64,000 bases of DNA from a virus. The stretch is from the IMG/VR virus record IMGVR_UViG_3300034105_002232; one strand, written 5' to 3'. Shown piece by piece: positions 3,897-62,950 of the stretch; the first letter of the stretch is position 1; each line of letters begins with the position of its first letter. The notes beneath the pieces were generated by a model. The model ran no database searches and was not told the DNA's origin. It worked only from the letters and a program-made list of their open reading frames with translations. The position numbers and the translations under genes are program-made.

Positions 3897-6144
3897 TTTC
3901 GTCTATTCTATAGGTTGAATCGGTATTCGCGATTGGTTGAAATGTAAACTCTTTGTCATGAAAATCAATTATGATAGTGCTCACTGGCGCAATCTTGTCA
4001 AACAATATGCGTTTACTCAATGGCACTTTGATTAGATCGTTGATTTTTCTCTGCAAAGGTCTTGCACCCATTTTGGGATCAAATCCTGTGGTAATCAATT
4101 CATCAACAGCAGCTTCAGTTAGTCTTACACGTAACTGTTTGTCTATTAGAAGATCATTTAATTCTGCAATAAACTTGCTAACAATTTTACGCATACTTAG
4201 ATCATCTAATTTAGAAAATTTAACAATACCATCTAAACGATTTCGGAATTCAGGTTTAAAGAATTCTTTAACAGCACGATCATCTTCTTGATTTTTTTGT
4301 AACTCTTTACCAAAGCCAATGTTGTTTTTTTCGTTGTCTGCTGCACCAAGATTGCTGGTTAAAATAATCATGGCATTACGACAGTCAGCTTTCTTACCAT
4401 TGCTGCTGGTAATTGTGCCTTCGTCCATCATTTGCAGCAAAATGTTACTAACGTCGGGATGAGCTTTTTCAATTTCATCCATCAAGATAATGCAATTGGG
4501 ATTTTTTTCAATGTCACTGATCAGCAACCCACCACCCAGATTGCCATCCTCGTAGCCAACATAACCAGGGGGTGCACCAATAAGTTTAGCAACAGTATGT
4601 CGCTCTTGGTATTCACTCATGTCATACCGCAGCAGTTTCATACCAAGATTTTCTGCCAGCAACTTGGCCAGTTCTGTTTTGCCTGTGCCAGTTGGTCCCA
4701 AGAACAAGAAGTTACCAATTGGTTTGTTTAGGGCTTTTAATCCTGCACGGCTCACATAGATTTTTTCTAATACTGTATCTACTGCAGCATCTTGACCGTA
4801 CAGTCGATCCTTGATGCCAACTTCAAGATTTTCAATTCCTTTGGCACCTTCGGTGTTGCCAATTGATTCAATTGGCAATCTTGTCAACCGGCTGATGGTG
4901 TGTACAATATCGGCACCCGAAACAATCCAATTGGTATCTTTGATTTTGAGTCGAGCACACGACGCATCTATTAGGTCAATGGCTTTGTCGGGCAATTTTT
5001 TATCAGTTTGATAACGCACACTTAGATCAACTGCGGTGTTAATGGCATCATCAGTGATGGTGCCTCCGTGGAATTTTTCAAAGTGTAATCTTAACCCAAA
5101 CAAGATATCTTTGGCAACTTCAGCACTGGGCTCATCAATGGTGATCCGTTGGAATCTGCGCATCAGAGCACGATCTTTTTCAAAACTCTGGCTATATTCT
5201 TCCCAGGTAGTACTAGCAATAACTTTAATTCGGCCTTTGCTCAATGCAGGTTTGATCATGTTACTAAAGTCCACACTGCTTTGACTTCCTGCTCCTGCTC
5301 CACGCATCTGGTGTGCTTCATCGATGAACAAGATCGCTTTGCCTTTTACATTTAGTGCAGCCAGTACCTCGTGAATTTTTTCTTCAAAGTCGCCGCGATA
5401 CTTGCTACCTGCTAGCAAACTACTAATATCAAGATTGTACACTGTGTAGTCTAATAGATATTCTGGTACCGTTTTTAACACAATTGCCAAAGCCAATCCT
5501 TCTGCAATAGCAGTCTTACCAACGCCAGGATCGCCTACCATTAGTATATTGCTTTTGTTGCGGCGTGCAAGAATTTCTACTATTTCGTTGGTCTCGGCAG
5601 CACGTCCAATCACTGGGTCAATCTTGCCGTCCTCGGCCTGGGTGTTGAGATTGTCACAATACCGTTCAAGTATCTTGTCTGCCTGGCCGGCATTTGCAAC
5701 TGTCTTGCCTGCGTCTGATTTATACTCTTTGTTGTATGTCTCTATTAGTTTTGCACGATCAAGACCATACTTGACCATGAAATAATGTGCGTAGCTGTTG
5801 GATTCTGCATGTATGCTCAAGAATAAATCTAATATTTGAATATGCGTTCTTGCACTAAACAGGACCTGAGTAAATGCTCGATTAAACACCCGTTCCAGAG
5901 CATGGGTTTTTTTAGGATCACTGGTATCGTTGACAAGATATGTTTGATTGGCAAGATAATCTTCGATGTCGGTTTCTAATCCTTTGATATCTGTTCCGTA
6001 TCCGGATAGAAGCTCTTGGAAGGGAGTATATCGTATCATGCTTAAAAACACATGTTCAAGGGTCACATACTCATGACTTAAACTTTTAGCCAGTTCAGTG
6101 GCTTCAACTACAATGTAATCAATTTCAGGGTTGGTTTGTAACAT
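3865..6144 (-). CDS. clpA: ATP-dependent Clp protease ATP-binding subunit (ClpA family)
   Basis: Clp N-domain; two AAA+ modules (GDPGVGKT, GPTGTGKT); IGF ClpP-docking loop; GARPL. Confidence 0.92.
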   Translation of the reverse strand: MLQTNPEIDYIVVEATELAKSLSHEYVTLEHVFLSMIRYTPFQELLSGYGTDIKGLETDIEDYLANQTYLVNDTSDPKKTHALERVFNRAFTQVLFSARTHIQILDLFLSIHAESNSYAHYFMVKYGLDRAKLIETYNKEYKSDAGKTVANAGQADKILERYCDNLNTQAEDGKIDPVIGRAAETNEIVEILARRNKSNILMVGDPGVGKTAIAEGLALAIVLKTVPEYLLDYTVYNLDISSLLAGSKYRGDFEEKIHEVLAALNVKGKAILFIDEAHQMRGAGAGSQSSVDFSNMIKPALSKGRIKVIASTTWEEYSQSFEKDRALMRRFQRITIDEPSAEVAKDILFGLRLHFEKFHGGTITDDAINTAVDLSVRYQTDKKLPDKAIDLIDASCARLKIKDTNWIVSGADIVHTISRLTRLPIESIGNTEGAKGIENLEVGIKDRLYGQDAAVDTVLEKIYVSRAGLKALNKPIGNFLFLGPTGTGKTELAKLLAENLGMKLLRYDMSEYQERHTVAKLIGAPPGYVGYEDGNLGGGLLISDIEKNPNCIILMDEIEKAHPDVSNILLQMMDEGTITSSNGKKADCRNAMIILTSNLGAADNEKNNIGFGKELQKNQEDDRAVKEFFKPEFRNRLDGIVKFSKLDDLSMRKIVSKFIAELNDLLIDKQLRVRLTEAAVDELITTGFDPKMGARPLQRKINDLIKVPLSKRILFDKIAPVSTIIIDFHDKEFTFQPIANTDSTYRIDENGYIVLAEPV

Positions 6145-6152
6145 AATAATAT

Positions 6153-7022
6153 TTATTGGTTAGAGAGTAAATTTTTAATGGAAAGTTTCTGTGACTCATT
6201 TAAATCAGTAGGTACTATGATGTTAATAACAATTATTAAATTTCCTCTATGTGATTGATTCATTGCATACAAACCCTGTTGCTGTATTCTAAATCTTGAT
6301 CCTGGTTGAGTACCTGCAGGAACAGCCAGATCAAATTTACGACCGTCTAATCCTTGTAATTGAATAGTGGCACCCACAATGGCATCTAAGCAATTTAGAT
6401 CCACAGCTTTAATTAGATCTAAATTGTCAACATTAAAACCTGACGCACCTTCAACATGCAGTCTAACATACAAGTCGCCGCGTGTTAAACTAGGAAAAAA
6501 GTTATCACCTAGTCCAGGATACTTGATTGTGCTGTTGGGTGTAACACCTCGGGGTATCTGGACCTCAACAGTGACACGCTCACCGTTTGTGGTTTGAACA
6601 CTAATAGTCTTTGTTTGAATGTCCAAGGTACTAACCAGGCTGACCACTACATCAACCTGGATGTCTTTGTTTTTTCTTGGTTGCCTAAATTGCGAAAATG
6701 GATCGCTGTGTGCTGCAAATCCTGGGCCAAAACTGAACCCAAAATTTCTCAGCATGTCTTCCATGTGTGATGGTATGTCACCGTTGGTATCGTGCCCATT
6801 CACAGTAAATCTGAATCCACCGTGATGTCCTTGTCGTTCAGCATCATACTGTGCCCGAGTCTGATCTGTGCCTATTGTGTCGTAGGCATGTTGTATTTTC
6901 TGGAAGTGGGTAGTATCCCCACCTTTGTCAGGATGGTGTTGATTGGCCAACTTACGATATGCTTTTTTAATTTCATCCAGACTGGCAGACTCAGGAACTC
7001 CCAAGGTATCATAATGTGTCAT
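6153..7022 (-). CDS. DnaJ/CbpA-type co-chaperone (J domain plus C-terminal domain, no Zn finger)
   Basis: HYDTLGV...HHPDKGG J-domain; GDLYV C-domain. Confidence 0.9.
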   Translation of the reverse strand: MTHYDTLGVPESASLDEIKKAYRKLANQHHPDKGGDTTHFQKIQHAYDTIGTDQTRAQYDAERQGHHGGFRFTVNGHDTNGDIPSHMEDMLRNFGFSFGPGFAAHSDPFSQFRQPRKNKDIQVDVVVSLVSTLDIQTKTISVQTTNGERVTVEVQIPRGVTPNSTIKYPGLGDNFFPSLTRGDLYVRLHVEGASGFNVDNLDLIKAVDLNCLDAIVGATIQLQGLDGRKFDLAVPAGTQPGSRFRIQQQGLYAMNQSHRGNLIIVINIIVPTDLNESQKLSIKNLLSNQ

Positions 7023-7028
7023 AGTAAT

Positions 7029-7057
7029 ATTATATAGTATAAATGAAATACGGTCAA
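7029..7057 (-). promoter_or_regulatory. sigma70-type promoter for dnaJ-clpA
   Basis: TTGACC-17nt-TATAAT on the minus strand. Confidence 0.7.
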
Positions 7058-7077
7058 TACTTTTGGCATTGACCGTA
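7049..7077 (-). terminator. 10-bp inverted repeat, probable terminator of the lysis cassette, overlapping the -35 of the dnaJ promoter
   Basis: TACGGTCAAT-N9-ATTGACCGTA followed by TTTCATTT on the minus strand. Confidence 0.55.
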
Positions 7078-7095
7078 CAATTGAGTTACAGAGGA

Positions 7096-7287
7096 TTACT
7101 TCTTTTTACCATCTGGAATGGCAGTACCTTCAAGTTTCTTGTGAACCTTGATAGTCTTGCAAACTTCTTTTTCCTTCTTGGTTTTTGGATCCATTTGTTT
7201 TACACATGCCTTTTTAGTTTCTGCTTCGGCATGTACTGCTGTAGTTGCAAATAAACCAATTGTTAAAGCTAATAGATATTTTGTCAT
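7096..7287 (-). CDS. small secreted protein
   Basis: Signal peptide (..AVHA), two Cys, Lys-rich. Confidence 0.65.
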   Translation of the reverse strand: MTKYLLALTIGLFATTAVHAEAETKKACVKQMDPKTKKEKEVCKTIKVHKKLEGTAIPDGKKK

Positions 7288-7508
7288 TTTGTACCCTTTT
7301 TAGTAAATTTTTCAGACGCTGTAAGTCCCAACCCGCCTAACACAATATACATCATTGCATCAAATGTGGTAGCACTTACTTTTTTTTCAAAAAACAACTC
7401 TGTAACGAAACCAATTGCTACCAGTACAAAAGCTAGTAATGTAATTACTCTCTTACTACTTGGATTGATTTCGCCTTCTGCTTTTAACATATCAGTTAAA
7501 AAACTCAT
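7284..7508 (-). CDS. small two-TM membrane protein, holin candidate
   Basis: Two hydrophobic helices, basic C-terminus, located in the lysis cassette. Confidence 0.5.
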   Translation of the reverse strand: MSFLTDMLKAEGEINPSSKRVITLLAFVLVAIGFVTELFFEKKVSATTFDAMMYIVLGGLGLTASEKFTKKGTK

Positions 7509-7520
7509 TTTACCTTTTCC

Positions 7521-7976
7521 TTAAATTTCTGGAAATGCTGGCTGTATTGGAGCTGGCTTACCATTTACCATTTGTATTGCGTCGCCAAATGGAGCTGCTG
7601 CCATTGGTGCTGCGCCAAAACTAGGTGCTGCGCCAAAACTAGGTGCAGCTACGGAAGGTGGTGGGGGTGGTGTGTACGGTTTAGTTGCAGCATCAATCGC
7701 TTTACCACGCAAATCTTTGTCGTCACCGGCCAACATAATGCCTGACAGGGTGCCTGTCAAGAATGTGGCAACAGGAATAATAAGCTCAAAGAACTTGTTA
7801 TCCACTGGACTCATCCCATTCATTGGTTGTGTAACAAAAATCAAACTAAACAAAACAACAAACACAATGCCAAACAAGGTTAAACCAAGAATGATGCCGA
7901 TAAAAAACTTTAATCGTGCATTTAGCTCATCTGTTGTGTATTTTTCTCCGGACCATAATTGTTGAATCATTTGCAA
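7521..7976 (-). CDS. two-TM membrane protein with Pro/Ala-rich tail (lysis-associated)
   Basis: Two TM helices, AAPSFG repeats, context. Confidence 0.6.
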   Translation of the reverse strand: MQMIQQLWSGEKYTTDELNARLKFFIGIILGLTLFGIVFVVLFSLIFVTQPMNGMSPVDNKFFELIIPVATFLTGTLSGIMLAGDDKDLRGKAIDAATKPYTPPPPPSVAAPSFGAAPSFGAAPMAAAPFGDAIQMVNGKPAPIQPAFPEI

Positions 7977-8212
7977 TCTCCTTTAGATGTATATTGTGGT
8001 GCAAGTGGTACCATAGATTGAATAGGTTTACCTGCTTTGTCTTTATTGTAGTGCTGTAGGTCTTCGGGACAAGTTCCGTTTGCACTACAGTACGGCTTCT
8101 TGCATTGCTGACTATCCCAGTTTTCGGGATCCTGACAGGGATACCGATAACGCTCGCCACAAGCAACGAGCAATGGTAGCAATAATACTGCCAGAGTATA
8201 TCTCATTGTCAT
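7967..8212 (-). CDS. Cys-rich lipoprotein
   Basis: Lipobox LVAC; RYPCQDP..CKKPYCSANGTCP. Confidence 0.7.
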   Translation of the reverse strand: MTMRYTLAVLLLPLLVACGERYRYPCQDPENWDSQQCKKPYCSANGTCPEDLQHYNKDKAGKPIQSMVPLAPQYTSKGDCK

Positions 8213-8823
8213 GCTCCTAGTACGTGCAACATGTGATTATAATGCTTGATGCGATCGTCTAAGCCAATATAACCACCATTGATCTTTTTGGTCATTTGTT
8301 TGATATCACCAGCATCAGCTTCTTTGTTTAAGTTATTACTTTCCCAAAACCAACAGGCACTTTGTGCAGCACCCTCGAATGTTTCTAGGTATGCACTGGC
8401 TTCTTCGGGATTGACTTCAATACTGGCTGCAAACCATTCATAGTTTGTTTTACCAGTCAATTGAATTAGTCCACGTCCACGATACTTAAAGCCATCGCCT
8501 GAGGCTTCGTCTCCGTTGCCCATACGATTTCCGTAAATTTTATTTGCAATCTTTGCAGGCTGCTTTTCATAAGCTTTTGCAGTGCCCATGTCTTGGAAGT
8601 ATTTTGGAAATACTTTCATTAAACTTTCTGCTTTATAATTCAAGTTCTCAGACAGAAACCTAAATCCTCCCGACTCATGAGCACACTGAGCAACAAATGC
8701 TGCTACTCGCTTGGGTGTGTTGATTTCATAATCAGGTAATAATTGATTCAGAGCTTTAACCCAATGGTCAGCATACAGAATACCGGGAACCATCTCTTTT
8801 AATTGACTTACCGTTAATTGCAT
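8209..8823 (-). CDS. glycoside hydrolase family 19 endolysin
   Basis: AQCAHESGG, ENLNY, YRGRGLIQLTGK and INGG motifs. Confidence 0.92.
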   Translation of the reverse strand: MQLTVSQLKEMVPGILYADHWVKALNQLLPDYEINTPKRVAAFVAQCAHESGGFRFLSENLNYKAESLMKVFPKYFQDMGTAKAYEKQPAKIANKIYGNRMGNGDEASGDGFKYRGRGLIQLTGKTNYEWFAASIEVNPEEASAYLETFEGAAQSACWFWESNNLNKEADAGDIKQMTKKINGGYIGLDDRIKHYNHMLHVLGA

Positions 8824-8835
8824 TTCATCTCCTTG

Positions 8836-8889
8836 TTATTTGTTGTGTTTGCCGCCACATACAGGACAGCTTTCTTGTTCTTGATTCAT
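8836..8889 (-). CDS. putative 17-aa micro-ORF MNQEQESCPVCGGKHNK
   Basis: ATGA-coupled to the o-spanin stop, ends just before the endolysin RBS; CxxC. Confidence 0.35.
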   Translation of the reverse strand: MNQEQESCPVCGGKHNK

Positions 8890-9158
8890 TTGACTTCCTC
8901 GAATATCTGTTTCTGCTTGGTGTACCAGTCATTCCAAAGTTCCACTTTGAGTTGACATTCTTTATACTGACCGTAGTTTTCTACCACCACTGACAAAGTT
9001 TTACTCAGCTCAGTGGTACCTTCGGGCACCATTTTTAAGTCAGGACAGGCTTGTTTTAATTCTTCGGGCACATCAGGAAACGTGCGTTTGACTGGAACAT
9101 GATTTACAGCACACGAGGTCAATAACAATACAGGAATTAAGGCCAATAATTGTTTCAC
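8886..9158 (-). CDS. outer-membrane spanin (Rz1-like lipoprotein)
   Basis: Lipobox LTSC, Pro-rich, additional Cys; adjacent to i-spanin. Confidence 0.75.
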   Translation of the reverse strand: MKQLLALIPVLLLTSCAVNHVPVKRTFPDVPEELKQACPDLKMVPEGTTELSKTLSVVVENYGQYKECQLKVELWNDWYTKQKQIFEEVK

Positions 9159-9637
9159 TGTGGATCCTCACGTTTTAGTGGCTGCACTTCCACTGTGGAC
9201 TTGCGTGACTTTGCTGCTTCATTTAGCAAATTGATTGCTTCCGGGGCAACGCGACAGTCTTGGTCAATGATCTTTTGTACTTCTCGTATCTTTTCTTGCA
9301 CAACAACCACGTCTTGTTTGACCACTTTGATTCGGTCAATGTAGACTTTCTTAATTACGGTGTTTGTTTCAACACTTTTCTTTTCAGAATCAGCAACTTG
9401 TTGTTGTAACGCAGCCACTTGCTCACGCCAGATCATTTCTGTAGTATAGCCGCCGTACCAGTATACTCCGCTGCAGAACAGCACAATTGAAACAATTTGT
9501 ATTGGGGTGCGATAGATATTGATCCAAGGGATGAATCTGATGAAAAAACCCAACAGAATGCCCAGAGCGCCTAGTCCCATGAGCGCATATACTATTAGTA
9601 AAATAAAACTATCTGGTAATAAATGTAGTAGCCACAT
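9155..9637 (-). CDS. inner-membrane spanin (Rz-like)
   Basis: N-terminal TM segments, then coiled coil and Cys; upstream of o-spanin and endolysin. Confidence 0.7.
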   Translation of the reverse strand: MWLLHLLPDSFILLIVYALMGLGALGILLGFFIRFIPWINIYRTPIQIVSIVLFCSGVYWYGGYTTEMIWREQVAALQQQVADSEKKSVETNTVIKKVYIDRIKVVKQDVVVVQEKIREVQKIIDQDCRVAPEAINLLNEAAKSRKSTVEVQPLKREDPQ

Positions 9638-9675
9638 AACCTATACTGTATAATTGATATACAGTATTTATGGTT
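9638..9675 (-). promoter_or_regulatory. late promoter (TAAATA) within a hairpin covering the lysis-operon RBS
   Basis: ATACTGTATA/TATACAGTAT perfect 10-bp inverted repeat plus AACC/GGTT extension. Confidence 0.6.
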
Positions 9676-9684
9676 TTGAGCGTT

Positions 9685-10236
9685 TTACAGGATGCCGGCC
9701 AGGCTGCGCAGGCTTTGTGTGTAGTCATTTTTGGGTGCTTTGGTGGTTACAGCAACACCAGCTGCATTACGCATCTCGTCTAATTCTTTAGTGCCAAACT
9801 TGCGTAGGTAGTCCTGCGTGGTCAACGGGACGTTTGTGCCAATAGAATCTGCAGTAAGCTCAAGTTCAGCTGGATTTGATCTAACAATCATGCGCCAATC
9901 ATCCAAGTCTTGATCCGTTAAATTCATTAGATCTTTCATCATGCTCATGACAAGATCGGGAATATCGCGAGTTCTGTCACATTCAACAAATACTATGTAG
10001 TCACCGTCATTCATTTCACCGGCGCTGATATCAGCGTCAATTACCCATTCATACCCTTTTTCAATGAAATTTACCAGATCTTCAGCTGGCTCACGGCCTG
10101 TTACTTTGAAACTCAGTACAATAATATCTTCATCGCGACCCATCTTGCTTTTGTATTCGTCAATGTGCAACTCAGGATGTACCAAGCGCATCAAATTGTT
10201 GGCTTCTAGCCCTTCGTTAATATTAGAATCCTGCAT
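9685..10236 (-). CDS. hypothetical phage protein (likely start MQDSNINEG)
   Basis: ORF track; start refined to ATG at 10234-10236. Confidence 0.7.
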   Translation of the reverse strand: MQDSNINEGLEANNLMRLVHPELHIDEYKSKMGRDEDIIVLSFKVTGREPAEDLVNFIEKGYEWVIDADISAGEMNDGDYIVFVECDRTRDIPDLVMSMMKDLMNLTDQDLDDWRMIVRSNPAELELTADSIGTNVPLTTQDYLRKFGTKELDEMRNAAGVAVTTKAPKNDYTQSLRSLAGIL

Positions 10237-10795
10237 TTTGTTGTCCTTGGGTAGTAGATTCAATTCCTTGCGCAGCATTTACCGGAGCAGCACTATCAGT
10301 CTTGTACATGTTATCTTCGGTACCAGTTTCGTAGCTTTGTTCGATGTCCTCAACGTCAATGGTGCCAGATTCCAGCTCTAGACTACCTTGATTGATTTCT
10401 TGCATCAGCTGTTTGGGCATAACAATTTCCACAAGCCAAATTGGTACTCGGGCTTGTTTGGGTACGTGGGTACCTGGCTTAAAATCCTTGGGATCCTTGA
10501 CTTTGACGGGATACTGTAAATGATCTTTTTTGTAGCGCACTTCGCACCCGTAATCTAGTAGTCTTTGCCCACCCCGCGGGTCCGGCATAAACTTATAGGG
10601 CCACATAAAAGTACAGGTTATAAAATACTTTTCATATTCAGGCCCTTGTACCAATTCGCCACGTTTCCAATTTTCAAACACATAAACATCTAGCTCGTCA
10701 ATTACTCGCTCAAAGTCCAACAGGCTGTTTACAGCACTGTCTGTCAATGAAATAGTCTTGATGTTTTCGATTATATCTTTAATATCTGTGGCCAT
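10223..10795 (-). CDS. hypothetical phage protein
   Basis: 190-aa ORF with RBS and TAAATA upstream. Confidence 0.75.
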   Translation of the reverse strand: MATDIKDIIENIKTISLTDSAVNSLLDFERVIDELDVYVFENWKRGELVQGPEYEKYFITCTFMWPYKFMPDPRGGQRLLDYGCEVRYKKDHLQYPVKVKDPKDFKPGTHVPKQARVPIWLVEIVMPKQLMQEINQGSLELESGTIDVEDIEQSYETGTEDNMYKTDSAAPVNAAQGIESTTQGQQNAGF

Positions 10796-10811
10796 ATTAA
10801 TTCCTGTTCAA

Positions 10812-11360
10812 TTATTTATCGAATAATTCAGCTATCTCATTGGGAATCCAGGGAACTAGCATACGCTCAGGATGCCATACTATGCCGGCCAAGTTACCAT
10901 CTATCCATGCTTCGCAGTTGCCTTGGTCGTCATTGACTAGCACTGTTGCTTTTGTATGTGGCCGTTTAATATACAACGTATGATAACTATTTACATGTTT
11001 GATTCCACTAAAATAACTAACGTTGTGAGTCACGTCAGCATGTCCACTAATATTGCCTATTTGCCCACCAAGTATATCAGTTAGTAAAAAACACCCATGA
11101 CAGATTCCGATTACTGGCTTTTGTAACACCATCATGGCATGAGCCAGTCTAATTTCAGTTAAACGCCTGATTGTGCTATCGTTGCCGCCAGTTATAACAA
11201 AACAATCCAATTGATGCGCAATTGATTCAAAATTTTGATTGGGCCTGTTTGCAATAGGAAAAAGCGTATGTGTGTTAAAGAAGGAATACCACCCTTGCTC
11301 TAATGCATCATACGCTCTTTTTTTATGTAACAGGACTCGTTGGCTGAGCCCAATATTCAT
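10812..11360 (-). CDS. class I glutamine amidotransferase / peptidase C26 (PuuD-like)
   Basis: ITGGND, GICHG nucleophile elbow, VNSYH, WHPE. Confidence 0.85.
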   Translation of the reverse strand: MNIGLSQRVLLHKKRAYDALEQGWYSFFNTHTLFPIANRPNQNFESIAHQLDCFVITGGNDSTIRRLTEIRLAHAMMVLQKPVIGICHGCFLLTDILGGQIGNISGHADVTHNVSYFSGIKHVNSYHTLYIKRPHTKATVLVNDDQGNCEAWIDGNLAGIVWHPERMLVPWIPNEIAELFDK

Positions 11361-12056
11361 TTACCAACCGTAAGCATCTGCAACAAGTTGTCGTCCGTCA
11401 ACATTGGCAGTAGTGTTACGGCAGCTAATGTCATATAGATCCTTGCGCATCAAATTGACTAAAGATTCAATTCGTGTTTGCTCCTCGGCACTACTAACTA
11501 ACTTCTCTAATGCCATTGCACCAATCTTACTATGGAAGCCTTCATCTTTGGCAATCTTGGCATAGGCATTACTAACAAATTCATCTTCAATGCAATCAGC
11601 CATTTGATTCCATACTGCTTCGGCACGGCCTTCGGCAACCAATTGATAAGCGGCTAGTGCTGCCGGGTCAGTTTCTGCACAGTATTTTTGTAATAGACTA
11701 GCACCTTTTGCTGTTGGGTTGGCAGCTTCAGCAGCAATAGCAGCAGCAACATTAACTGGGGAACCTTGGATATGTTCAATTACTTCCTTGACCAGGCGAA
11801 AATGCACTGCTTCGTCGTGTGCTTGTTGGGTCAACAGTTGTAGTTCAACAGGATCTGCATCTGCAGGCATATTAGCCACTTGTTGAGCAATTTCTACCAT
11901 GTTCATACGCTCGTTGATCATGCGACCGATAAAATGTGTAATCAATTCCTCTTGCGGGGGTTTACTATCAAAGTATGCTTTTACATTGATTTGACTTGCT
12001 TTAAACAATGCTTGATTTTCATCACGCAATTTGTTTACAAATTGTTTTGCGTTCAC
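11361..12056 (-). CDS. ferritin-like diiron protein
   Basis: Helical protein with paired ExxH motifs (DEAVH, DEGFH) and upstream Glu ligands; GTG start. Confidence 0.75.
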   Translation of the reverse strand: MNAKQFVNKLRDENQALFKASQINVKAYFDSKPPQEELITHFIGRMINERMNMVEIAQQVANMPADADPVELQLLTQQAHDEAVHFRLVKEVIEHIQGSPVNVAAAIAAEAANPTAKGASLLQKYCAETDPAALAAYQLVAEGRAEAVWNQMADCIEDEFVSNAYAKIAKDEGFHSKIGAMALEKLVSSAEEQTRIESLVNLMRKDLYDISCRNTTANVDGRQLVADAYGW

Positions 12057-14987: not shown

Positions 14988-15989
14988 ATGCTGAACTACA
15001 AAGATATACGCCGCGTACACCTTGAGATAAGCACCAGGTGTAATGCGGCGTGCCCTGAATGTCCACGAAATTTTCGTGGTGTTGACATAGTAGACACCTA
15101 TCCCATATGTGATATGAGTTTAGATCAGGCAAAAAAGATCTTTACAACTTCTTTTTTATTACAATTAGATCAAATTCTCATCAATGGCAATTACGGTGAT
15201 TTTATCACTGCACATGATGGTCTGGAGATTGTGGAATATTTTTTAACAGTCAATCCCAACATAAAAATCATAATCAGCACAAATGCCAGCGGCCGTCCAC
15301 ATATATGGCGTCAATTAGGTGAGCTTGGGGTAGAAGTTCAGTTTAGAATTGATGGACTAGCAGATACTCATCATCTGTATAGACAATATACAAACTTTGA
15401 ATTAATATTGGAGAATGCATTAAAGTTTATACAAGCAGGAGGCTATGCCATATGGGCAATGATTAAATTTGATCATAACAAACATCAGATATCTCAGGCT
15501 GAAATATTATCTAAAGCAATGGGATTTAAAAGATTTGAATTGGTTGATGCTGGTAGGGACACCACTGTGGTCTTTACTAGAGATAAACAACTTAGTCACG
15601 TAATAGGCAATTATCAAGGACCAACAGACTATGATTTATTATATGATCAATATCAACAGTATATTAGCAATCCTGACATTACTTTAAAAAAAGTACAAAT
15701 ACAAGAACGAACCATTAAATGTTATTCAAAAGAAAATAAAGAAGTATATGTGTCTGCCAATGGAGAAATATATCCTTGTTGTTGGTTAGGATTTTATCCT
15801 CTTAGTAAACAAGGAAATCCTAGTACGTTTCAGTTACGGCCGTTAATTAAAGAAAATAATGCACTTGAATATAGCATAGAACATGCAATCGCATGGTTTA
15901 ATCAAATTGAGTCTACGTGGAGTAAAACAGTACTAGATGGAAAAATCTATACTTGCAATGAGACCTGCGGGAGTAGAGCTGTAAGTTGA
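14988..15989 (+). CDS. radical SAM protein with C-terminal SPASM/twitch domain
   Basis: CNAACPEC; C-terminal C...GEIYPCC...CxxxC. Confidence 0.88.
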   Translation: MLNYKDIRRVHLEISTRCNAACPECPRNFRGVDIVDTYPICDMSLDQAKKIFTTSFLLQLDQILINGNYGDFITAHDGLEIVEYFLTVNPNIKIIISTNASGRPHIWRQLGELGVEVQFRIDGLADTHHLYRQYTNFELILENALKFIQAGGYAIWAMIKFDHNKHQISQAEILSKAMGFKRFELVDAGRDTTVVFTRDKQLSHVIGNYQGPTDYDLLYDQYQQYISNPDITLKKVQIQERTIKCYSKENKEVYVSANGEIYPCCWLGFYPLSKQGNPSTFQLRPLIKENNALEYSIEHAIAWFNQIESTWSKTVLDGKIYTCNETCGSRAVS

Positions 15990-40550: not shown

Positions 40551-40810
40551 TCTTTTTCTCCTACCTGGATATTGATCCCAAAATGCTTCTTGATTGCATC
40601 AGCATACTCATGCCCAGTCCTGGCAGTCTTGTTCTTCCTGATCACAATACAGGCTTCTAACAACAACAGGTGAGCCAGAACCTCTGCGTACAATGTTACA
40701 TCTGTATATATTCCAAAAGGACAATATATCTTACCATCTCTACCAGGGTACACCAATTTGGATTGCCGTAGTAGTTGCAATATGTGTTTGTTAATATCTG
40801 ACATGATCAA
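40547..40810 (-). CDS. paralog-array member (diverged)
   Basis: LAHLLLLEAC...AIKKHFGI. Confidence 0.6.
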   Translation of the reverse strand: MIMSDINKHILQLLRQSKLVYPGRDGKIYCPFGIYTDVTLYAEVLAHLLLLEACIVIRKNKTARTGHEYADAIKKHFGINIQVGEKE

Positions 40811-41646
40811 ACCTCTAGGTATTTAAGTTGAAAATGATCTGCCTGCTCTTCCTGTCCATCGTAACCCCTGGGATTACATACCACACGGCAAGTACCAATC
40901 ATGTAATCAAACTCGTGATGGGTATGACCGTGTGTCCATAGCTTGATATTGCGATTATCTAAGATAAACTCATCTAGATTGGTACTGTAGGCTCCGTTCA
41001 TGATGTGCTCATGTTTGTAGCGAGGATGCGTACTGGCCTTGCTGGGGGCGTGATGCCCCACCACCACGGTCTTCTGTGTGGGATACACTGCCAGTACCTT
41101 TCTGAGTACCTCCAAGAACTTCTTGTGATCCTGTACAGAGTCTTCAGGCAAGAATTTTCTAGTATAGAACCCTTCACGCTTGGTGGTATTCTTCACAGAT
41201 TGATAGTCATTCATCATGAAACGAATCTGTTGCATAGTAACAGGATCTTCACCGTTCATGTCTGTCCACAGTGTACCACCATAAAACAACACACCGTTGA
41301 TGATACGCCATTCTTTGTCTAAAAAATGTACATTGTGCAAGTCACCAAAGGTGCCACGAATCGTTTTGGCAGTAGCGGCATAGTCACCGTGGTAGTGTTC
41401 GTGATTGCCCATGATCAAGATCACCTGCGGGAATCGTTTACTGCAACGTTCAACAAAATCAAAATAACGGCGAGCACGTAGATTCATACGAGTGGGCATC
41501 AACACATCATTAAATGGTTCAAGATAGTTTAAGTCTTCAACCACAAAGATATCACCACCCAGGATCAAAACATCCGCATCTTGATCATTGACCAGATCAA
41601 GATCACCAAATTCCAAATGCAAATCACTGCACACTGCAATTTTCAT
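40807..41646 (-). CDS. calcineurin-like metallophosphoesterase
   Basis: SDLHLE, GDI, GNHE, HHAP, HGHTH. Confidence 0.9.
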   Translation of the reverse strand: MKIAVCSDLHLEFGDLDLVNDQDADVLILGGDIFVVEDLNYLEPFNDVLMPTRMNLRARRYFDFVERCSKRFPQVILIMGNHEHYHGDYAATAKTIRGTFGDLHNVHFLDKEWRIINGVLFYGGTLWTDMNGEDPVTMQQIRFMMNDYQSVKNTTKREGFYTRKFLPEDSVQDHKKFLEVLRKVLAVYPTQKTVVVGHHAPSKASTHPRYKHEHIMNGAYSTNLDEFILDNRNIKLWTHGHTHHEFDYMIGTCRVVCNPRGYDGQEEQADHFQLKYLEV

Positions 41647-42847: not shown

Positions 42848-42921
42848 TGGTTGCAGGACCAGGAATCGAACCTGGGACTGTAGCTTATGAGACTACCGTT
42901 TTACCGCTTCACTATCCTGCG
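42848..42921 (-). tRNA. tRNA-Met(CAU), initiator-like C1xA72 mismatch
   Basis: Cloverleaf, CTCATAA loop, TTCGATT, encoded CCA. Confidence 0.88.
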
Positions 42922-44639: not shown

Positions 44640-44714
44640 TGGTCCGGCTAGCAGGAATCGAACCCACATTAAAGGAGTAGAAATCCTCTGTATTATCCAT
44701 TATACTATAGCCAG
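44640..44714 (-). tRNA. tRNA-Arg(UCU)
   Basis: TTTCTAC loop, cloverleaf, CCA. Confidence 0.88.
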
Positions 44715-45052
44715 ACTAAACCTGCATGTACTTCGGCGTGACAATTAGCACACAATAAAGTACATTTATTAATTTCTTTTCTTAACTGCTCTATAGGAGC
44801 ACCTCTTTTACCACTAATACCAAATTCTTTTATTGATGGATCAATGTGGTGCCACTGTAATGCCGCAAAAGATTTATCATACTTGCATCTTTCGCACTTG
44901 CCGCCACGCTCAATAATTAACTGGTCTAATTTATCTCTAGCAACTTTATAGGTTCGTTTATTCCAGCATTTTTTGCATTGATAACGATACCCCTTTGCAT
45001 AGAAATGCGATGCTCCTTCGATGCCGCAATCTTTACAGACATACTCTTTCAT
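44705..45052 (-). CDS. HNH endonuclease (free-standing, homing-type) in the tRNA cluster
   Basis: CKDC..CKKC, GGKCERC..ALQWHH.DP...C.LLCANCHAEVH; start refined to MKEYVC. Confidence 0.85.
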   Translation of the reverse strand: MKEYVCKDCGIEGASHFYAKGYRYQCKKCWNKRTYKVARDKLDQLIIERGGKCERCKYDKSFAALQWHHIDPSIKEFGISGKRGAPIEQLRKEINKCTLLCANCHAEVHAGLVWL

Positions 45053-45062
45053 TTTGCTCTCC

Positions 45063-45087
45063 TGGTTAGAGTATTTATCTCTAACCA
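45063..45087 (-). promoter_or_regulatory. hairpin with late-promoter loop abutting the HNH RBS
   Basis: TGGTTAGAG-ATAAATA-CTCTAACCA followed directly by GGAG. Confidence 0.65.
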
Positions 45088-45094
45088 AAGATCA

Positions 45095-45171
45095 TGGTGG
45101 GCCGGGTGAGACTCGAACTCACTGTCACCCGATTATGAGTCGGACGCTTATACCAGTTAAGCTTCCGGCCC
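45095..45171 (-). tRNA. tRNA-CAU, probably Ile2 (lysidine type)
   Basis: GGGCC 5' end, CCGAC-TCATAA-TCGG arm, CCA. Confidence 0.85.
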
Positions 45172-49199: not shown

Positions 49200-49291
49200 T
49201 GGTACCAGCGGAGGGAATCGAACCCTCTCAAGAACGCTAATCTGGCGCTAAAAGGTTTATAAAACCTCTCTGACTACCAAGTCTCGCTGGC
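49200..49291 (-). tRNA. non-canonical tRNA with UAU anticodon, minimal D-arm and long variable arm
   Basis: GCCAGCG/CGCTGGT-A-CCA; GACT-TGGT-AGTC; TTTATAA loop; GAGGG-TTCGATT-CCCTC. Confidence 0.75.
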
Positions 49292-49300
49292 AATTGTTTT

Positions 49301-49374
49301 TGGAGCGGGGTAGGAGAATCGAACTCCTCGCTTTAGCTTGGAAGGCTAAGGTATTACCACTATACGAACCCCGC
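49301..49374 (-). tRNA. tRNA-Gly(UCC)
   Basis: CTTCCAA loop, U73, CCA. Confidence 0.92.
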
Positions 49375-49383
49375 TTTAAAACT

Positions 49384-49458
49384 TGGTACACCGTAGGAGA
49401 ATCGAACTCCTCTTACCTGCGTGAAAGGGATGTGTCCTAACCAATAGACGAACGGTGC
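49384..49458 (-). tRNA. tRNA-Glu(UUC), anticodon stem with two mismatches
   Basis: CATCC-CTTTCAC-GCAGG. Confidence 0.75.
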
Positions 49459-49462
49459 ATAA

Positions 49463-49546
49463 ACCATATTGAAGCACACTTTAGATAAGCCCTATGCGTC
49501 CGACACGAATGCCACGCATCCAAGGCAAAATGTGTTTCAATATGGT
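49463..49546 (-). ncRNA. long hairpin RNA in the Leu-Glu tRNA spacer
   Basis: ACCATATTGAAACACA/TGTGCTTCAATATGGT outer stem, ATGCGT/ACGCAT, GGCA-TTCG-TGTC tip. Confidence 0.55.
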
Positions 49547-49626
49547 GCCTGGGGCGAGACTCGAACTCGCACGTCTCTCGACACTGGCTTCTAAGACCAG
49601 CATGGCTACCATTACATCACCCAGGC
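49543..49626 (-). tRNA. tRNA-Leu(UAG)
   Basis: CTTAGAA loop, variable arm, CCA. Confidence 0.92.
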
Positions 49627-49742
49627 ATTACTTGTTAAATTGTTAAAGAGTACTCATGTCAGCACACTGTTTGGTGCTTGCTGCTTACTGCTTGATTCAA
49701 TACACATATTATAGCAAACTACTGATTTTTGTGTCTACCGTT

Positions 49743-54040: not shown

Positions 54041-54124
54041 TGGTAGTAGACCAGGGATGAGGACCTCATCCTGCACCGGTCTCCGGGAATTATAAGGCCC
54101 CGCCGCATACCAATGCTGTCTACC
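54041..54124 (-). ncRNA. tRNA-like RNA (UAU loop, minimal D-arm, aberrant T-arm, encoded CCA)
   Basis: GGTAGAC/GTCTACT-A-CCA; GCAT-TGGT-ATGC; CTTATAA loop; T-arm replaced by a CAGGATGAG-GTC-CTCATCCCTG hairpin. Confidence 0.6.
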
Positions 54125-60619: not shown

Positions 60620-61933
60620 TTAGATTTTTTCGCCGACTTCAAAACCACGGAAACGCAGGAATCTTGGAAAACGTAAAGAATAAGTGCCATCTTGATTTTG
60701 TGTAATAGCATCTGCTCTCACTTCAACCAGCCTATTGAGTACAGAATCACGATCATGATAGAACTGGTCTCTATCAGCATCGCTAAACCCACTACCAACA
60801 TTGACGGTAATAAACTTCCCGTCATCGGATCCGGAGCAAACGAGAGCTCCAAGTCGTCCCACGTTTCTTCCAGTACCCTCTTCAAGTTCAATAACATTTA
60901 GGCTGACCTCAATAAATGGTTTAAGTTTGAGCCAAGCCACACTGCGCTTGCACTCGTATGCTGCATCTGGATCTTTGAGCATGATGCCTTCGTATCCGCC
61001 TGCCACTGCCTGTTGATTGATTTCAAGATAGCGTGCCTGTCCTTCTTTGGTATCCAGGTCCACAAGCTCTTGCCCAACAACCTCAACATTGGGCAAGAAC
61101 GGTCTACTGACCTTGAACCAAATACTCAGTGCCTGACTACGCAGTTCTTGTGTTTTGTCAAAGCGTCCTTGTTCAAACGCCGCCAATGGTAGCCAATCAA
61201 ACAGGTGCAGTACCGCATCTGTAGACTTGATGTCACTTTTGCGATGTACCTGTTTCATTAAATCTTGAAAACTGCTGCTCATGATTTCACCATCAAACAC
61301 CCATGGTTCTGACAAGTGTTTTGCAACAACGGCAAATTGTTCACGAATGTGCGGAAAGTTTACCAGTTCCTTGCCATTACGGCTAAACTGATCCACACGA
61401 CCAGTGGGGTGGACAACAGTGATAACCCGAACGCCATCCAGCTTAACTTCAATAAGTTTACGTCCTGTGACTTTGCTTTCGTGATTGGCACTGTCGTGCG
61501 CCAGTTGACAGCCAAATACCGGAATACTGAATTCATTATGATTTTCCTCTACTGTTTTGTTGATGGTTTTTTCGCTAACACCGCAACGAAGGTCTTTGAT
61601 TAGAATACGTCGTACCCAACTGTTCCATTCATCTGGCGTGGCCAGCGCCATTGCTGCTTCAATCAAGTCACGTGCAGCATGTCCAGTGGCCTGCCGGGTA
61701 CTCAATTGACGACACAGTTCGTTGGTTGATTCCCAACCTAATCCGGCACCTGCGGTGTCTGTTTTCTCTGGCACCTGCTTGACACCAAATGTGGTCATTG
61801 AATCAAGTGCAAGTCTACAACCAGCAAAAAACTCTTGGTTGTTGTCCAGTGCTTCTCTATGCACAATGAGTTCTTTGTACAAACGTCCATTGCCTGCTTC
61901 CAGTTCTGCAACAACTTCCCAAGGTTTACGCAT
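60620..61933 (-). CDS. ATP-dependent DNA ligase
   Basis: EVKLDGVR motif I, FDGE, EGIMLK, WLKLK, VGSGFSD, SLRFPRF. Confidence 0.93.
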   Translation of the reverse strand: MRKPWEVVAELEAGNGRLYKELIVHREALDNNQEFFAGCRLALDSMTTFGVKQVPEKTDTAGAGLGWESTNELCRQLSTRQATGHAARDLIEAAMALATPDEWNSWVRRILIKDLRCGVSEKTINKTVEENHNEFSIPVFGCQLAHDSANHESKVTGRKLIEVKLDGVRVITVVHPTGRVDQFSRNGKELVNFPHIREQFAVVAKHLSEPWVFDGEIMSSSFQDLMKQVHRKSDIKSTDAVLHLFDWLPLAAFEQGRFDKTQELRSQALSIWFKVSRPFLPNVEVVGQELVDLDTKEGQARYLEINQQAVAGGYEGIMLKDPDAAYECKRSVAWLKLKPFIEVSLNVIELEEGTGRNVGRLGALVCSGSDDGKFITVNVGSGFSDADRDQFYHDRDSVLNRLVEVRADAITQNQDGTYSLRFPRFLRFRGFEVGEKI

Positions 61934-62339: not shown

Positions 62340-62368
62340 ATTATAGCAAATGATGAATTTATTGTCAA
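62340..62368 (-). promoter_or_regulatory. consensus sigma70 promoter
   Basis: TTGACA-17-TATAAT. Confidence 0.8.
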
Positions 62369-62369
62369 T

Positions 62370-62396
62370 AAAAATAGCACCCTAGGGTGCTATTTT
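62370..62396 (-). terminator. terminator of the tmRNA gene
   Basis: AAAATAGCACCCTAGGGTGCTATTTT palindrome. Confidence 0.8.
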
Positions 62397-62399
62397 AGC

Positions 62400-62776
62400 T
62401 ATTTGTTAACAAGGCGCCGCCCCCGGGTCTAGAGTTTCTTAGGCTGCTAGTAAAACTGCTGAGTCATTTGCAGCAACACGGCCAAAAAAGGCAGCTTTGC
62501 TTACAGTAACTTTTACAGTACCATTTGTATTTGCGTTTGCATTTACGAGTTTTGCTTGATTTACAGTCATCGCCTACTGTGCTGTCCATATCCTTACTTG
62601 ATGCCCAATCGAAACCTGGTCGCCCCCATCAGAAGTACTCTTGATCTCCAGTTTACCGGTGGGGATCAATCCACTTTCAACCTTCTCCGATCCGGCGTCC
62701 CGTTTAGAATACTTTTGGTGGAGGCGAGGGGAATCGAACCCCTGTCTTGAACACCTTTCATTCTACTTCATACAAC
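62400..62776 (-). ncRNA. ssrA: circularly permuted (two-piece) tmRNA
   Basis: Acceptor piece ...GACAGGGGTTCGATTCCCCTCGCCTCCACCA (CCA at 62716-62718) precedes the coding piece GGGGGCGACCAGGTTTCGA (G1 at 62627); G3-U70 pair; tag ORF 62439-62540 ends in LAA. Confidence 0.9.
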
Positions 62777-62782
62777 AATTCT

Positions 62783-62950
62783 TTACTTTACTTCTCTAAG
62801 TTCACATCTGGCTTTGATGGCGTTTTCTCTGTGATGCATGATTGCTCGCACAATTTCCTCACATTCAGTCCGGCGTGTATAACTGCGCCAATCTCGCTCA
62901 ACTCCATCGGCAACGACCAAAACCACCAAGACCCAAACCCAAATATCCAT
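62783..62950 (-). CDS. small protein with hydrophobic N-terminus and two Cys (55 aa), not in ORF track
   Basis: MDIWVWVLVVLVVADG...CEE...ARCELR; manual translation. Confidence 0.5.
   Translation of the reverse strand: MDIWVWVLVVLVVADGVERDWRSYTRRTECEEIVRAIMHHRENAIKARCELREVK

Follow-up and report, generated by a model that had tools for sequence, protein, structure and literature searches.

The 92-nt RNA encoded at positions 49200-49291 of IMG/VR virus record IMGVR_UViG_3300034105_002232 is a real and strongly conserved phage tRNA, with a structure far beyond what chance would produce. It carries the anticodon UAU, a miniature D-arm and a long extra arm that displays a second, invariant triplet, GAU. 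With five helices, all supported by covariation, it represents a structural class of tRNA specific to phages. It probably serves as a functional phage tRNA-Ile(UAU) that allows AUA codons to be decoded without TilS, a reading to which a probability of about 0.7 is given. All coordinates below refer to the 64,000-nt stretch of DNA that was analysed (the window) unless a contig is named.

Structure of the tRNA gene

The gene lies on the minus strand, and its parts are listed in the 5′ to 3′ direction of the RNA, with the basis of each assignment in brackets.

49200-49291, minus strand: whole gene, a 92-nt non-canonical tRNA(UAU) with encoded CCA (ARAGORN; fold z = -4.2; 107 bits with covariance model R1)
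49285-49291, minus strand: 5′ strand of the acceptor stem, GCCAGCG, which pairs with 49204-49210, the first pair being G1:U72 (covariation)
49272-49284, minus strand: lone linker A8 followed by the mini D-arm GACU-UGGU-AGUC, with 4 bp, a 4-nt loop and G18 G19 kept (fold)
49250-49270, minus strand: anticodon arm with the 7-bp stem GAGAGGU/ACCUUUU and the loop UUUAUAA (ARAGORN, fold)
49259-49261, minus strand: anticodon UAU, flanked by U33, A37 and A38 (ARAGORN, fold)
49233-49249, minus strand: extra arm with the 5-bp stem AGCGC/GCGUU and the 7-nt loop CAGAUUA (fold, covariation)
49240-49242, minus strand: GAU of the extra loop, loop positions 3-5 (invariant in the family)
49228-49232, minus strand: 5-nt linker CUUGA from the extra arm to the T arm (family consensus YUYGA)
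49211-49227, minus strand: T arm GAGGG-UUCGAUU-CCCUC, with 5 bp and a canonical T-loop (fold)
49200-49210, minus strand: 3′ strand of the acceptor stem, CGCUGGU, discriminator A73 and encoded CCA (sequence; A73 in 19/19 sequences)

ARAGORN calls the gene at exactly 49200-49291 as tRNA-Ile(tat), with the anticodon at position 31. The minimum free energy (MFE) fold is a five-helix cloverleaf of -35 kcal/mol (z = -4.2), and none of 200 shuffled sequences was equally stable. In this fold a single A separates the D arm from the anticodon stem, the extra hairpin abuts the anticodon stem with 0 nt between them, and the acceptor/T branch has the 7/5 arrangement, giving a 12-bp acceptor-T stack. The features of a functional tRNA are present: a 7-bp acceptor stem, A73-CCA, the T-loop, a 7-nt anticodon loop with U33 and a purine at 37, and G18G19. 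The gene nevertheless does not reach the gathering score of RF00005, the general Rfam tRNA model, and its best Rfam match in a permissive search is tRNA-Sec (RF01852), at 35.7 bits against a cut-off of 47. U8, A14, R15 and position 9 are absent, so the core must be built differently.

The initial annotation had described most of this architecture from the letters alone, and the description held up well. The 7-bp acceptor stem, A73, encoded CCA and normal T-arm are all found on the minus strand at the positions listed; the single nucleotide before a 4-bp D-stem closed by UGGU is seen both in the sequence and in the MFE fold; and the anticodon stem that it called extended, with its UUUAUAA loop, measures 7 bp. 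The ARAGORN run and the covariance model from phage homologues that it proposed likewise bear the assignment out. Its long variable arm (AGCGC/GCGTT) is present as well, whereas the class-II-like character ascribed to that arm does not stand: the anticodon is UAU, and AUA sites are not Leu- or Ser-like. Left out of that earlier reading was the 7-nt loop of the variable arm, with its central GAU that is invariant in the family.

A conserved phage family

Homologues were collected with structural patterns in which nothing but the three loops of the D, anticodon and T arms was fixed, by which diverged members were also recovered. The family comprises at least 71 distinct sequences from well over 150 IMG/VR contigs, divided into 19 distinct sequences with U32 and at least 52 distinct sequences with C32, the latter from more than 120 further contigs. 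The anticodon UAU is invariant in all family members among the matches listed. An anticodon-free scan returned no member with a mini D-arm and another anticodon; its extra matches were ordinary tRNA-Ser(UGA).

The five helices are all supported by covariation in an alignment of 19 distinct homologues, where 99% of cells pair and 18 of the 28 pairs show compensatory changes. None of 500 shuffles was as good, and pairing fell to 39-49% of cells in register-shift controls. All seven acceptor pairs are kept in 19/19 sequences, with compensatory changes in six of them. The two inner pairs of the D-stem covary (AU/UA/CG and CG/GC/AU), as do three of the five pairs of the T arm and the lower four pairs of the anticodon stem, the upper three of which are rich in G:U. 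The U, G and A of the linker before the T arm are invariant in the 19-sequence alignment, with the variants UUUGA, CUUGA and CUCGA among the matches listed. With a covariance model built from the family (R1), members reach 81-107 bits and ordinary tRNAs no more than 36 bits. Divergence of the D-arm, variable arm or anticodon among homologues had been named at the outset as grounds for abandoning the assignment; all three are kept, and the helices covary.

An exact search of IMG/VR with a 38-nt query returned 16 contigs and a looser search three more. Across these 19 contigs the 92 nt are 99-100% identical, while the counterparts of the window's other tRNAs are far less similar, the array neighbours of the UAU tRNA differ from contig to contig, and the protein-coding DNA gives no blastn alignment to the window, almost nothing else being alignable. 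A near-identical tRNA in otherwise diverged contigs points to very strong constraint, to recent exchange between phages, or to both.

The family also occurs in cultured phages, namely Sinorhizobium phage Phosso and Synechococcus phages S-SRM01 and S-SKS1. The gene is annotated as tRNA-Ile(tat) in Phosso and is unannotated in the other two. A host origin was considered by scanning one genome from each of 185,579 prokaryote species with a relaxed structural pattern. The 11 matches were all due to chance and lacked the shape of a tRNA, which makes recent capture of the gene from a host unlikely on these sequence comparisons.

Genomic setting

By its gene content the window seems to belong to a large, uncultured phage: it has a ClpA-like ATPase, a clamp loader, DNA ligase, PstS, radical-SAM enzymes, and tail and baseplate proteins, together with 13 tRNAs and a permuted tmRNA. 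No near relative was found among 50,697 phage records. The UAU tRNA is the last gene of a four-tRNA cluster with 9-nt spacers, upstream of which lies a promoter-like sequence.

49301-49626, minus strand: upstream tRNAs Leu(UAG), Glu(UUC) and Gly(UCC) of the same cluster, separated from the UAU tRNA by a 9-nt spacer
49708-49737, minus strand: promoter-like TAGACA-18-TATAAT upstream of the four-tRNA cluster, 11/12 and with TG (a consensus match only)

There is no terminator-like site between the UAU tRNA and the next ORF (start 49176). Neither PHROG nor Pfam gave a match for the 101-aa ORF immediately downstream, and no link to the UAU tRNA was found for the nearby metallophosphoesterase, TauD-like and radical SAM genes. 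Throughout the family the gene always lies inside a phage tRNA array and is co-oriented with its neighbours. The UAU tRNA would be co-transcribed with these neighbours from a phage tRNA operon and processed in the same way. CCA is encoded by 13/13 tRNAs of the window, and eight have U34 and read A-ending codons.

Several further features of these loci were recorded. In cyanophage-type members (L031, L033, L034, L038, L039, L043, L055, L061, L083 and L084) a tRNA(CAU) follows the UAU tRNA, mostly directly and in S-SRM01 (L083) about 460 nt downstream, and is itself usually followed by Leu(UAA) or Val(UAC). This CAU gene may be an extra tRNA-Met that limits misreading of AUG by U34, or a tRNA-Ile2. 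Apart from the tRNA-Leu of S-SKS1 (L084), the records of S-SKS1 and S-SRM01 carry no annotation for the tRNAs of these cyanophage arrays. In Phosso (L082, 1814-2356) and S-SRM01 (L083, 1636-2055) the UAU tRNA is closely followed by an HNH endonuclease gene, and in the window an HNH endonuclease gene at 44705-45088 overlaps a tRNA-Arg of the array; homing could be a cause of the identical tRNA in otherwise diverged phages. The permuted tmRNA of the window is at 62348-62809 on the minus strand (RF04321, 120.7 bits). A related contig, L058, has a permuted tmRNA at 4193-4573 with the tag ANDNAPLVMALAA, which hints at an alphaproteobacterial or similar host.

Amino acid meaning of AUA

AUA makes up 18.1 per 1000 codons of the window and 26% of its Ile codons. 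Its use is uneven: five genes (60620-61933, 1999-2949, 40807-41646, 8209-8823 and 11361-11921), the DNA ligase among them, have no AUA, and at the other extreme 16 occur in the 334 codons of 14988-15989. This may reflect a split by time of expression or by gene origin.

The residue that AUA stands for was assessed from protein-level columns across phages, because contigs with an identical tRNA share almost no other DNA that blastn can align. ORFs of diverged family-carrying phages were aligned with one another (789 HSPs, mean identity 51%), and AUA in the partner was ignored. The residue frequencies were as follows.

AUA columns, 540 sites: Ile 0.31, Val 0.18, Leu 0.17, Met 0.04, Ser 0.03
AUU columns, 1538 sites: Ile 0.44, Val 0.19, Leu 0.13
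Leu-codon columns, 2892 sites: Ile 0.10, Leu 0.54
Ser-codon columns, 2797 sites: Ser 0.43

Over its 540 sites AUA thus has a residue profile that resembles that of AUU/AUC and is unlike that of Leu or Ser codons. The same Ile-like picture emerges at 11 AUA sites of ClpA compared with 136 distant homologues. As its AUA columns are Ile-like, the UAU tRNA is best read as a TilS-independent tRNA-Ile(UAU), and to judge from these comparisons its charge is most likely isoleucine. A small share of ambiguous AUA decoding may occur.

Among the roles that the initial annotation had put forward, TilS-independent reading of AUA is the most likely: the tRNA takes the place of the AUA reader in phage tRNA arrays with as many as 32 genes, its anticodon loop is canonical and AUA is heavily used. 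In arrays of 29-32 tRNAs the family member is the sole UAU tRNA. A UAU anticodon, independent of any unmodified C, would read AUA as isoleucine without TilS. The host IleRS, an enzyme that in tilS-bearing bacteria handles UAU poorly, would be the most likely charging partner.

Counting against a working tRNA(UAU) is a tRNA-Ile2-like CAU gene in the same window, which would make the UAU tRNA redundant here. This CAU tRNA (45095-45171, minus strand) has C4:G69, C5:G68, U12:A23, C29:G41 and A73 and is plausibly, on these sequence features, a lysidine-type tRNA-Ile2. The phage may have two AUA decoders. A second CAU tRNA, at 42848-42921 on the minus strand, has a C1-A72 mismatch and is initiator-like.

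The GAU-bearing extra arm

The extra loop follows the consensus [C/U][A/C/G]GAU[U/G/C][A/G], on a stem that covaries while the loop stays fixed. GAU is found in 71/71 distinct sequences among the matches listed, and none of the patterns that yielded these sequences required it. Within the same 71 sequences among the matches listed, loop position 2 (~33) is never U, position 6 (~37) is never A and the last position (~38) is A in 64; the stem pair ~29:41 is C:G in 69. For comparison, ordinary phage tRNA-Ile(GAU) genes in the same DNA have C29:G41 in 10 of 21 cases, and other tRNAs in only 11%. Inspection of the alignment revealed no conserved complement to the GAU loop in the D-stem, T-loop positions 59-61 or the 3′ linker.

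A GAU loop is never present in the long arms of Leu, Ser(GCU) and Tyr tRNAs at any of the loci examined, and other long-arm tRNAs in the same DNA have GNRA or UUCG loops. Contig L071 (344 kb) offers a close comparison, as its tRNA(UAU) has a normal D-arm and bears the same CAGAUUA arm, while GAU is absent from five other long-armed tRNAs of that contig. These five (Ile(GAU), Met(CAU), Lys(UUU), Glu(UUC) and Thr(UGU), each of 86-88 nt) belong to a jumbo-phage array at 6630-11473; tRNAs of these kinds normally have short arms, and here their extra hairpin is short with a small GAAA, UAAU or UAA loop. Free-standing phage tRNA-Ile(GAU) genes in L071 (11306-11379) and in L063 have the anticodon loops CCGAUUA or CUGAUUA (C33 and/or U37), the same unusual letters as the extra arm of the UAU family.

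The identity set of bacterial tRNA-Ile comprises A73, C4-G69, U12-A23, C29-G41, G/L34, A35, U36, t6A37 and A38, of which t6A37 is a strong determinant for bacterial IleRS (PMC9976931). A tRNA with the anticodon UAU is a poor substrate for IleRS of the E. coli type, which has a Trp conserved among species with tilS (PMC3575796). At its canonical sites the UAU tRNA of the window has A73, A35, U36, A37 and A38, with A:U at 4:69, C:G at 12:23 and G:C at 29:41. The extra arm carries G34-A35-U36, A38 and the C29:G41-type pair, all identity elements for bacterial IleRS, and only there in the UAU tRNA do C29:G41 and G34 occur together.

These letters raise the tentative idea, still doubtful, that the two arms divide the work: the UAU arm would be read by the ribosome, and the GAU arm would be shown to the host IleRS, or to another Ile-specific enzyme, for charging with Ile. 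The extra arm would supply a recognition surface of the GAU type, so that an otherwise rejected UAU tRNA receives Ile, and it would itself be disabled for decoding, having neither U33 nor A37. Several points count against such a surrogate arm. The lack of A37 in the extra loop holds for all 71 sequences among the matches listed, and the tip of a variable arm is far from the anticodon-binding site of IleRS unless the helices re-stack. Other phages have canonical tRNA(UAU) genes of 74-75 nt, which shows that the extra arm is not generally required, and a related "type B" tRNA(UAU) of contig L044 lacks GAU.

A second tRNA-like gene in the window

A further gene with affinities to the UAU tRNA was recovered by descriptor scan.

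54041-54124, minus strand: second related tRNA-like gene (descriptor scan; 34.5 bits with R1)

It has G1:U72, the A8 linker, a mini D-arm (GCAU-UGGU-AUGC), a UAU-type loop (CUUAUAA) and A73-CCA. A 7-bp hairpin replaces the T arm, and a GAU loop is lacking. In its ends and D arm the gene agrees with the "type B" tRNA(UAU) of L044, and it is flanked by a small pqqA-like ORF and a radical-SAM gene. The 5′ half of the gene has no exact match in IMG/VR, and no other copy without a T arm was found in 204 loci.

Alternative explanations

An unlikely alternative is a tRNA-like RNA that the ribosome does not use: a decoy or sponge for a tRNA-targeting nuclease or a tRNA-binding defence protein, or an aminoacyl donor. 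There is precedent for phage tRNAs that counter anticodon nucleases (PMC10264068), and most allo-tRNA(UAU) species seem unused in translation (PMC5389517). The failure of RF00005, the conserved tertiary nucleotides missing from the core, the loss of the T-loop in the relative within the same window, and 99-100% identity across 19 contigs that are otherwise diverged in tRNAs and genes would all suit such a role, as would an extra loop that looks like the anticodon loop of tRNA-Ile(GAU). A decoy should, however, mimic the host loop CUGAUAA, yet among the matches listed position 33 is never U and position 37 never A. The anticodon loop proper is fully canonical, with UAU invariant among the matches listed; the acceptor-T branch, T-loop and G18G19 are those required by RNase P, EF-Tu and the ribosome; and the UAU tRNA fills the AUA slot of near-complete phage tRNA sets.

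Recoding of AUA is less probable still. In this view a class-II-type tRNA would receive Leu or Ser by virtue of its long arm and A73, and AUA would be recoded or deliberately mistranslated as one of these residues, a role that the initial annotation had also entertained. The long extra arm and A73 are Leu-type features, a nematode nev-tRNA-Ile(UAU) is charged with Leu (PMC3333845), and allo-tRNAs can be serylated (PMC5389517). The codon columns speak against it: AUA sites are Ile-like, with Leu at 0.17 and Ser at 0.03 beside Ile at 0.31 and Val at 0.18, whereas Leu codons show Leu at 0.54 and Ser codons Ser at 0.43, and ClpA agrees. Moreover, bacterial LeuRS depends on the D-loop and on tertiary elements missing here, the G73 typical of tRNA-Ser is absent, and at 18 AUA per 1000 codons mistranslation would be costly. 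Hardly credible at all is a two-anticodon tRNA that offers either hairpin to the ribosome, UAU for AUA and GAU for AUU/AUC, even though the extra hairpin has the exact size of an anticodon arm (5 bp and a 7-nt loop), is followed by a 5-nt linker of variable-loop length, and resembles the CCGAUUA loop of the free-standing tRNA-Ile(GAU) in L071. U33, and hence the U-turn, occurs in 0/71 extra loops among the matches listed, and there is no purine-37 pattern. In some members positions 32-38 and 33-37 can pair, shrinking the loop to 3-5 nt, and a normal tRNA-Ile(GAU) is also present in many arrays.

Significance

The literature searched yielded no account of a tRNA(UAU) whose extra arm bears GAU, and publication elsewhere is possible. 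If the reading as a TilS-independent tRNA-Ile(UAU) is true, many phages of cyanobacteria and alphaproteobacteria decode AUA with an architecture that standard tRNA models miss. Phage tRNA inventories and analyses of codon supply are incomplete, as the gene is unannotated in the records of S-SKS1 and S-SRM01. If the extra arm does act as a surrogate, it would embody a new principle of tRNA identity in which recognition and decoding sit on separate arms: a "two-headed" tRNA found in nature, in which an identity element has been moved to the extra arm. Such a tRNA would also be a ready-made scaffold for the engineering of orthogonal tRNAs. With three phage-host pairs in culture, the function of the GAU arm is accessible to experiment.

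Comparison with known systems

The long arm recalls the class II tRNAs for Leu, Ser and Tyr, an identity set aside on the grounds of the UAU anticodon and of AUA sites that are not Leu- or Ser-like. The placement of the arm also differs, since in the phage tRNA no nucleotide separates it from the anticodon stem and 5 nt come after it, a position not taken by the long arms of Leu, Ser and Tyr tRNAs. With tRNA-Sec (RF01852) the phage tRNA has a 4-nt D-loop and a long arm in common. It was rejected as a tRNA-Sec because it scores 35.7 bits, below 47, has UAU instead of UCA, a 7/5 instead of an 8/5 branch, and a D-stem of 4 bp, not 6. In tRNA-Pyl and mammalian mt-tRNA-Ser(UCN), a single nucleotide connects the acceptor and D stems, the D-loop is small, the anticodon stem is lengthened and the variable loops are short. 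The first three of these traits are common to the phage tRNA, whereas its extra arm is long and its anticodon is not CUA.

Nematode nev-tRNA-Ile(UAU) also combines a class-II-like long arm with UAU (Hamashima et al., 2012; PMC3333845). It is, however, eukaryotic and charged with Leu (PMC3333845), whereas the AUA codons of the phages behave as Ile. Another parallel is offered by the allo-tRNA(UAU) species, in which the D-arm ends in a tetraloop, the anticodon stem is lengthened, the extra arm is long and the anticodon is UAU, and which are detected with tRNA-Sec models (PMC5389517). Their acceptor/T branches are 8/4 or 9/3 and their D-stem is long (PMC5389517), in contrast to the 7/5 branch and 4-bp D-stem of the phage tRNA. 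Membership of this group was rejected, as all members of the phage family have the 7/5 branch and refolding to 8/4 or 9/3 fails, with A8 facing C. Allo-tRNAs come mostly from acidobacteria, where their links are with toxin-antitoxin loci or transposons and not with the tRNA arrays of phages; a GAU loop that is conserved has not been reported for them. Mukai et al. (2017; PMC5389517) found allo-tRNA(UAU) species to be inactive in translation in E. coli, a point against the phage RNA as a working tRNA.

The nearest functional parallel is tRNA-Ile2(UAU) of Mycoplasma mobile, whose UAU anticodon reads AUA without lysidine and which likewise has A73 and A37/A38 (Taniguchi et al., 2013; PMC3575796). 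Both tRNAs face the same two problems, recognition of U34 by IleRS and possible misreading of AUG. In M. mobile the tRNA is an ordinary class I cloverleaf, and the solution lies on the side of the enzyme, in Arg865 of IleRS (PMC3575796). The phage tRNA differs in its mini D-arm, its 7-bp anticodon stem, its extra GAU hairpin and its being encoded by a phage.
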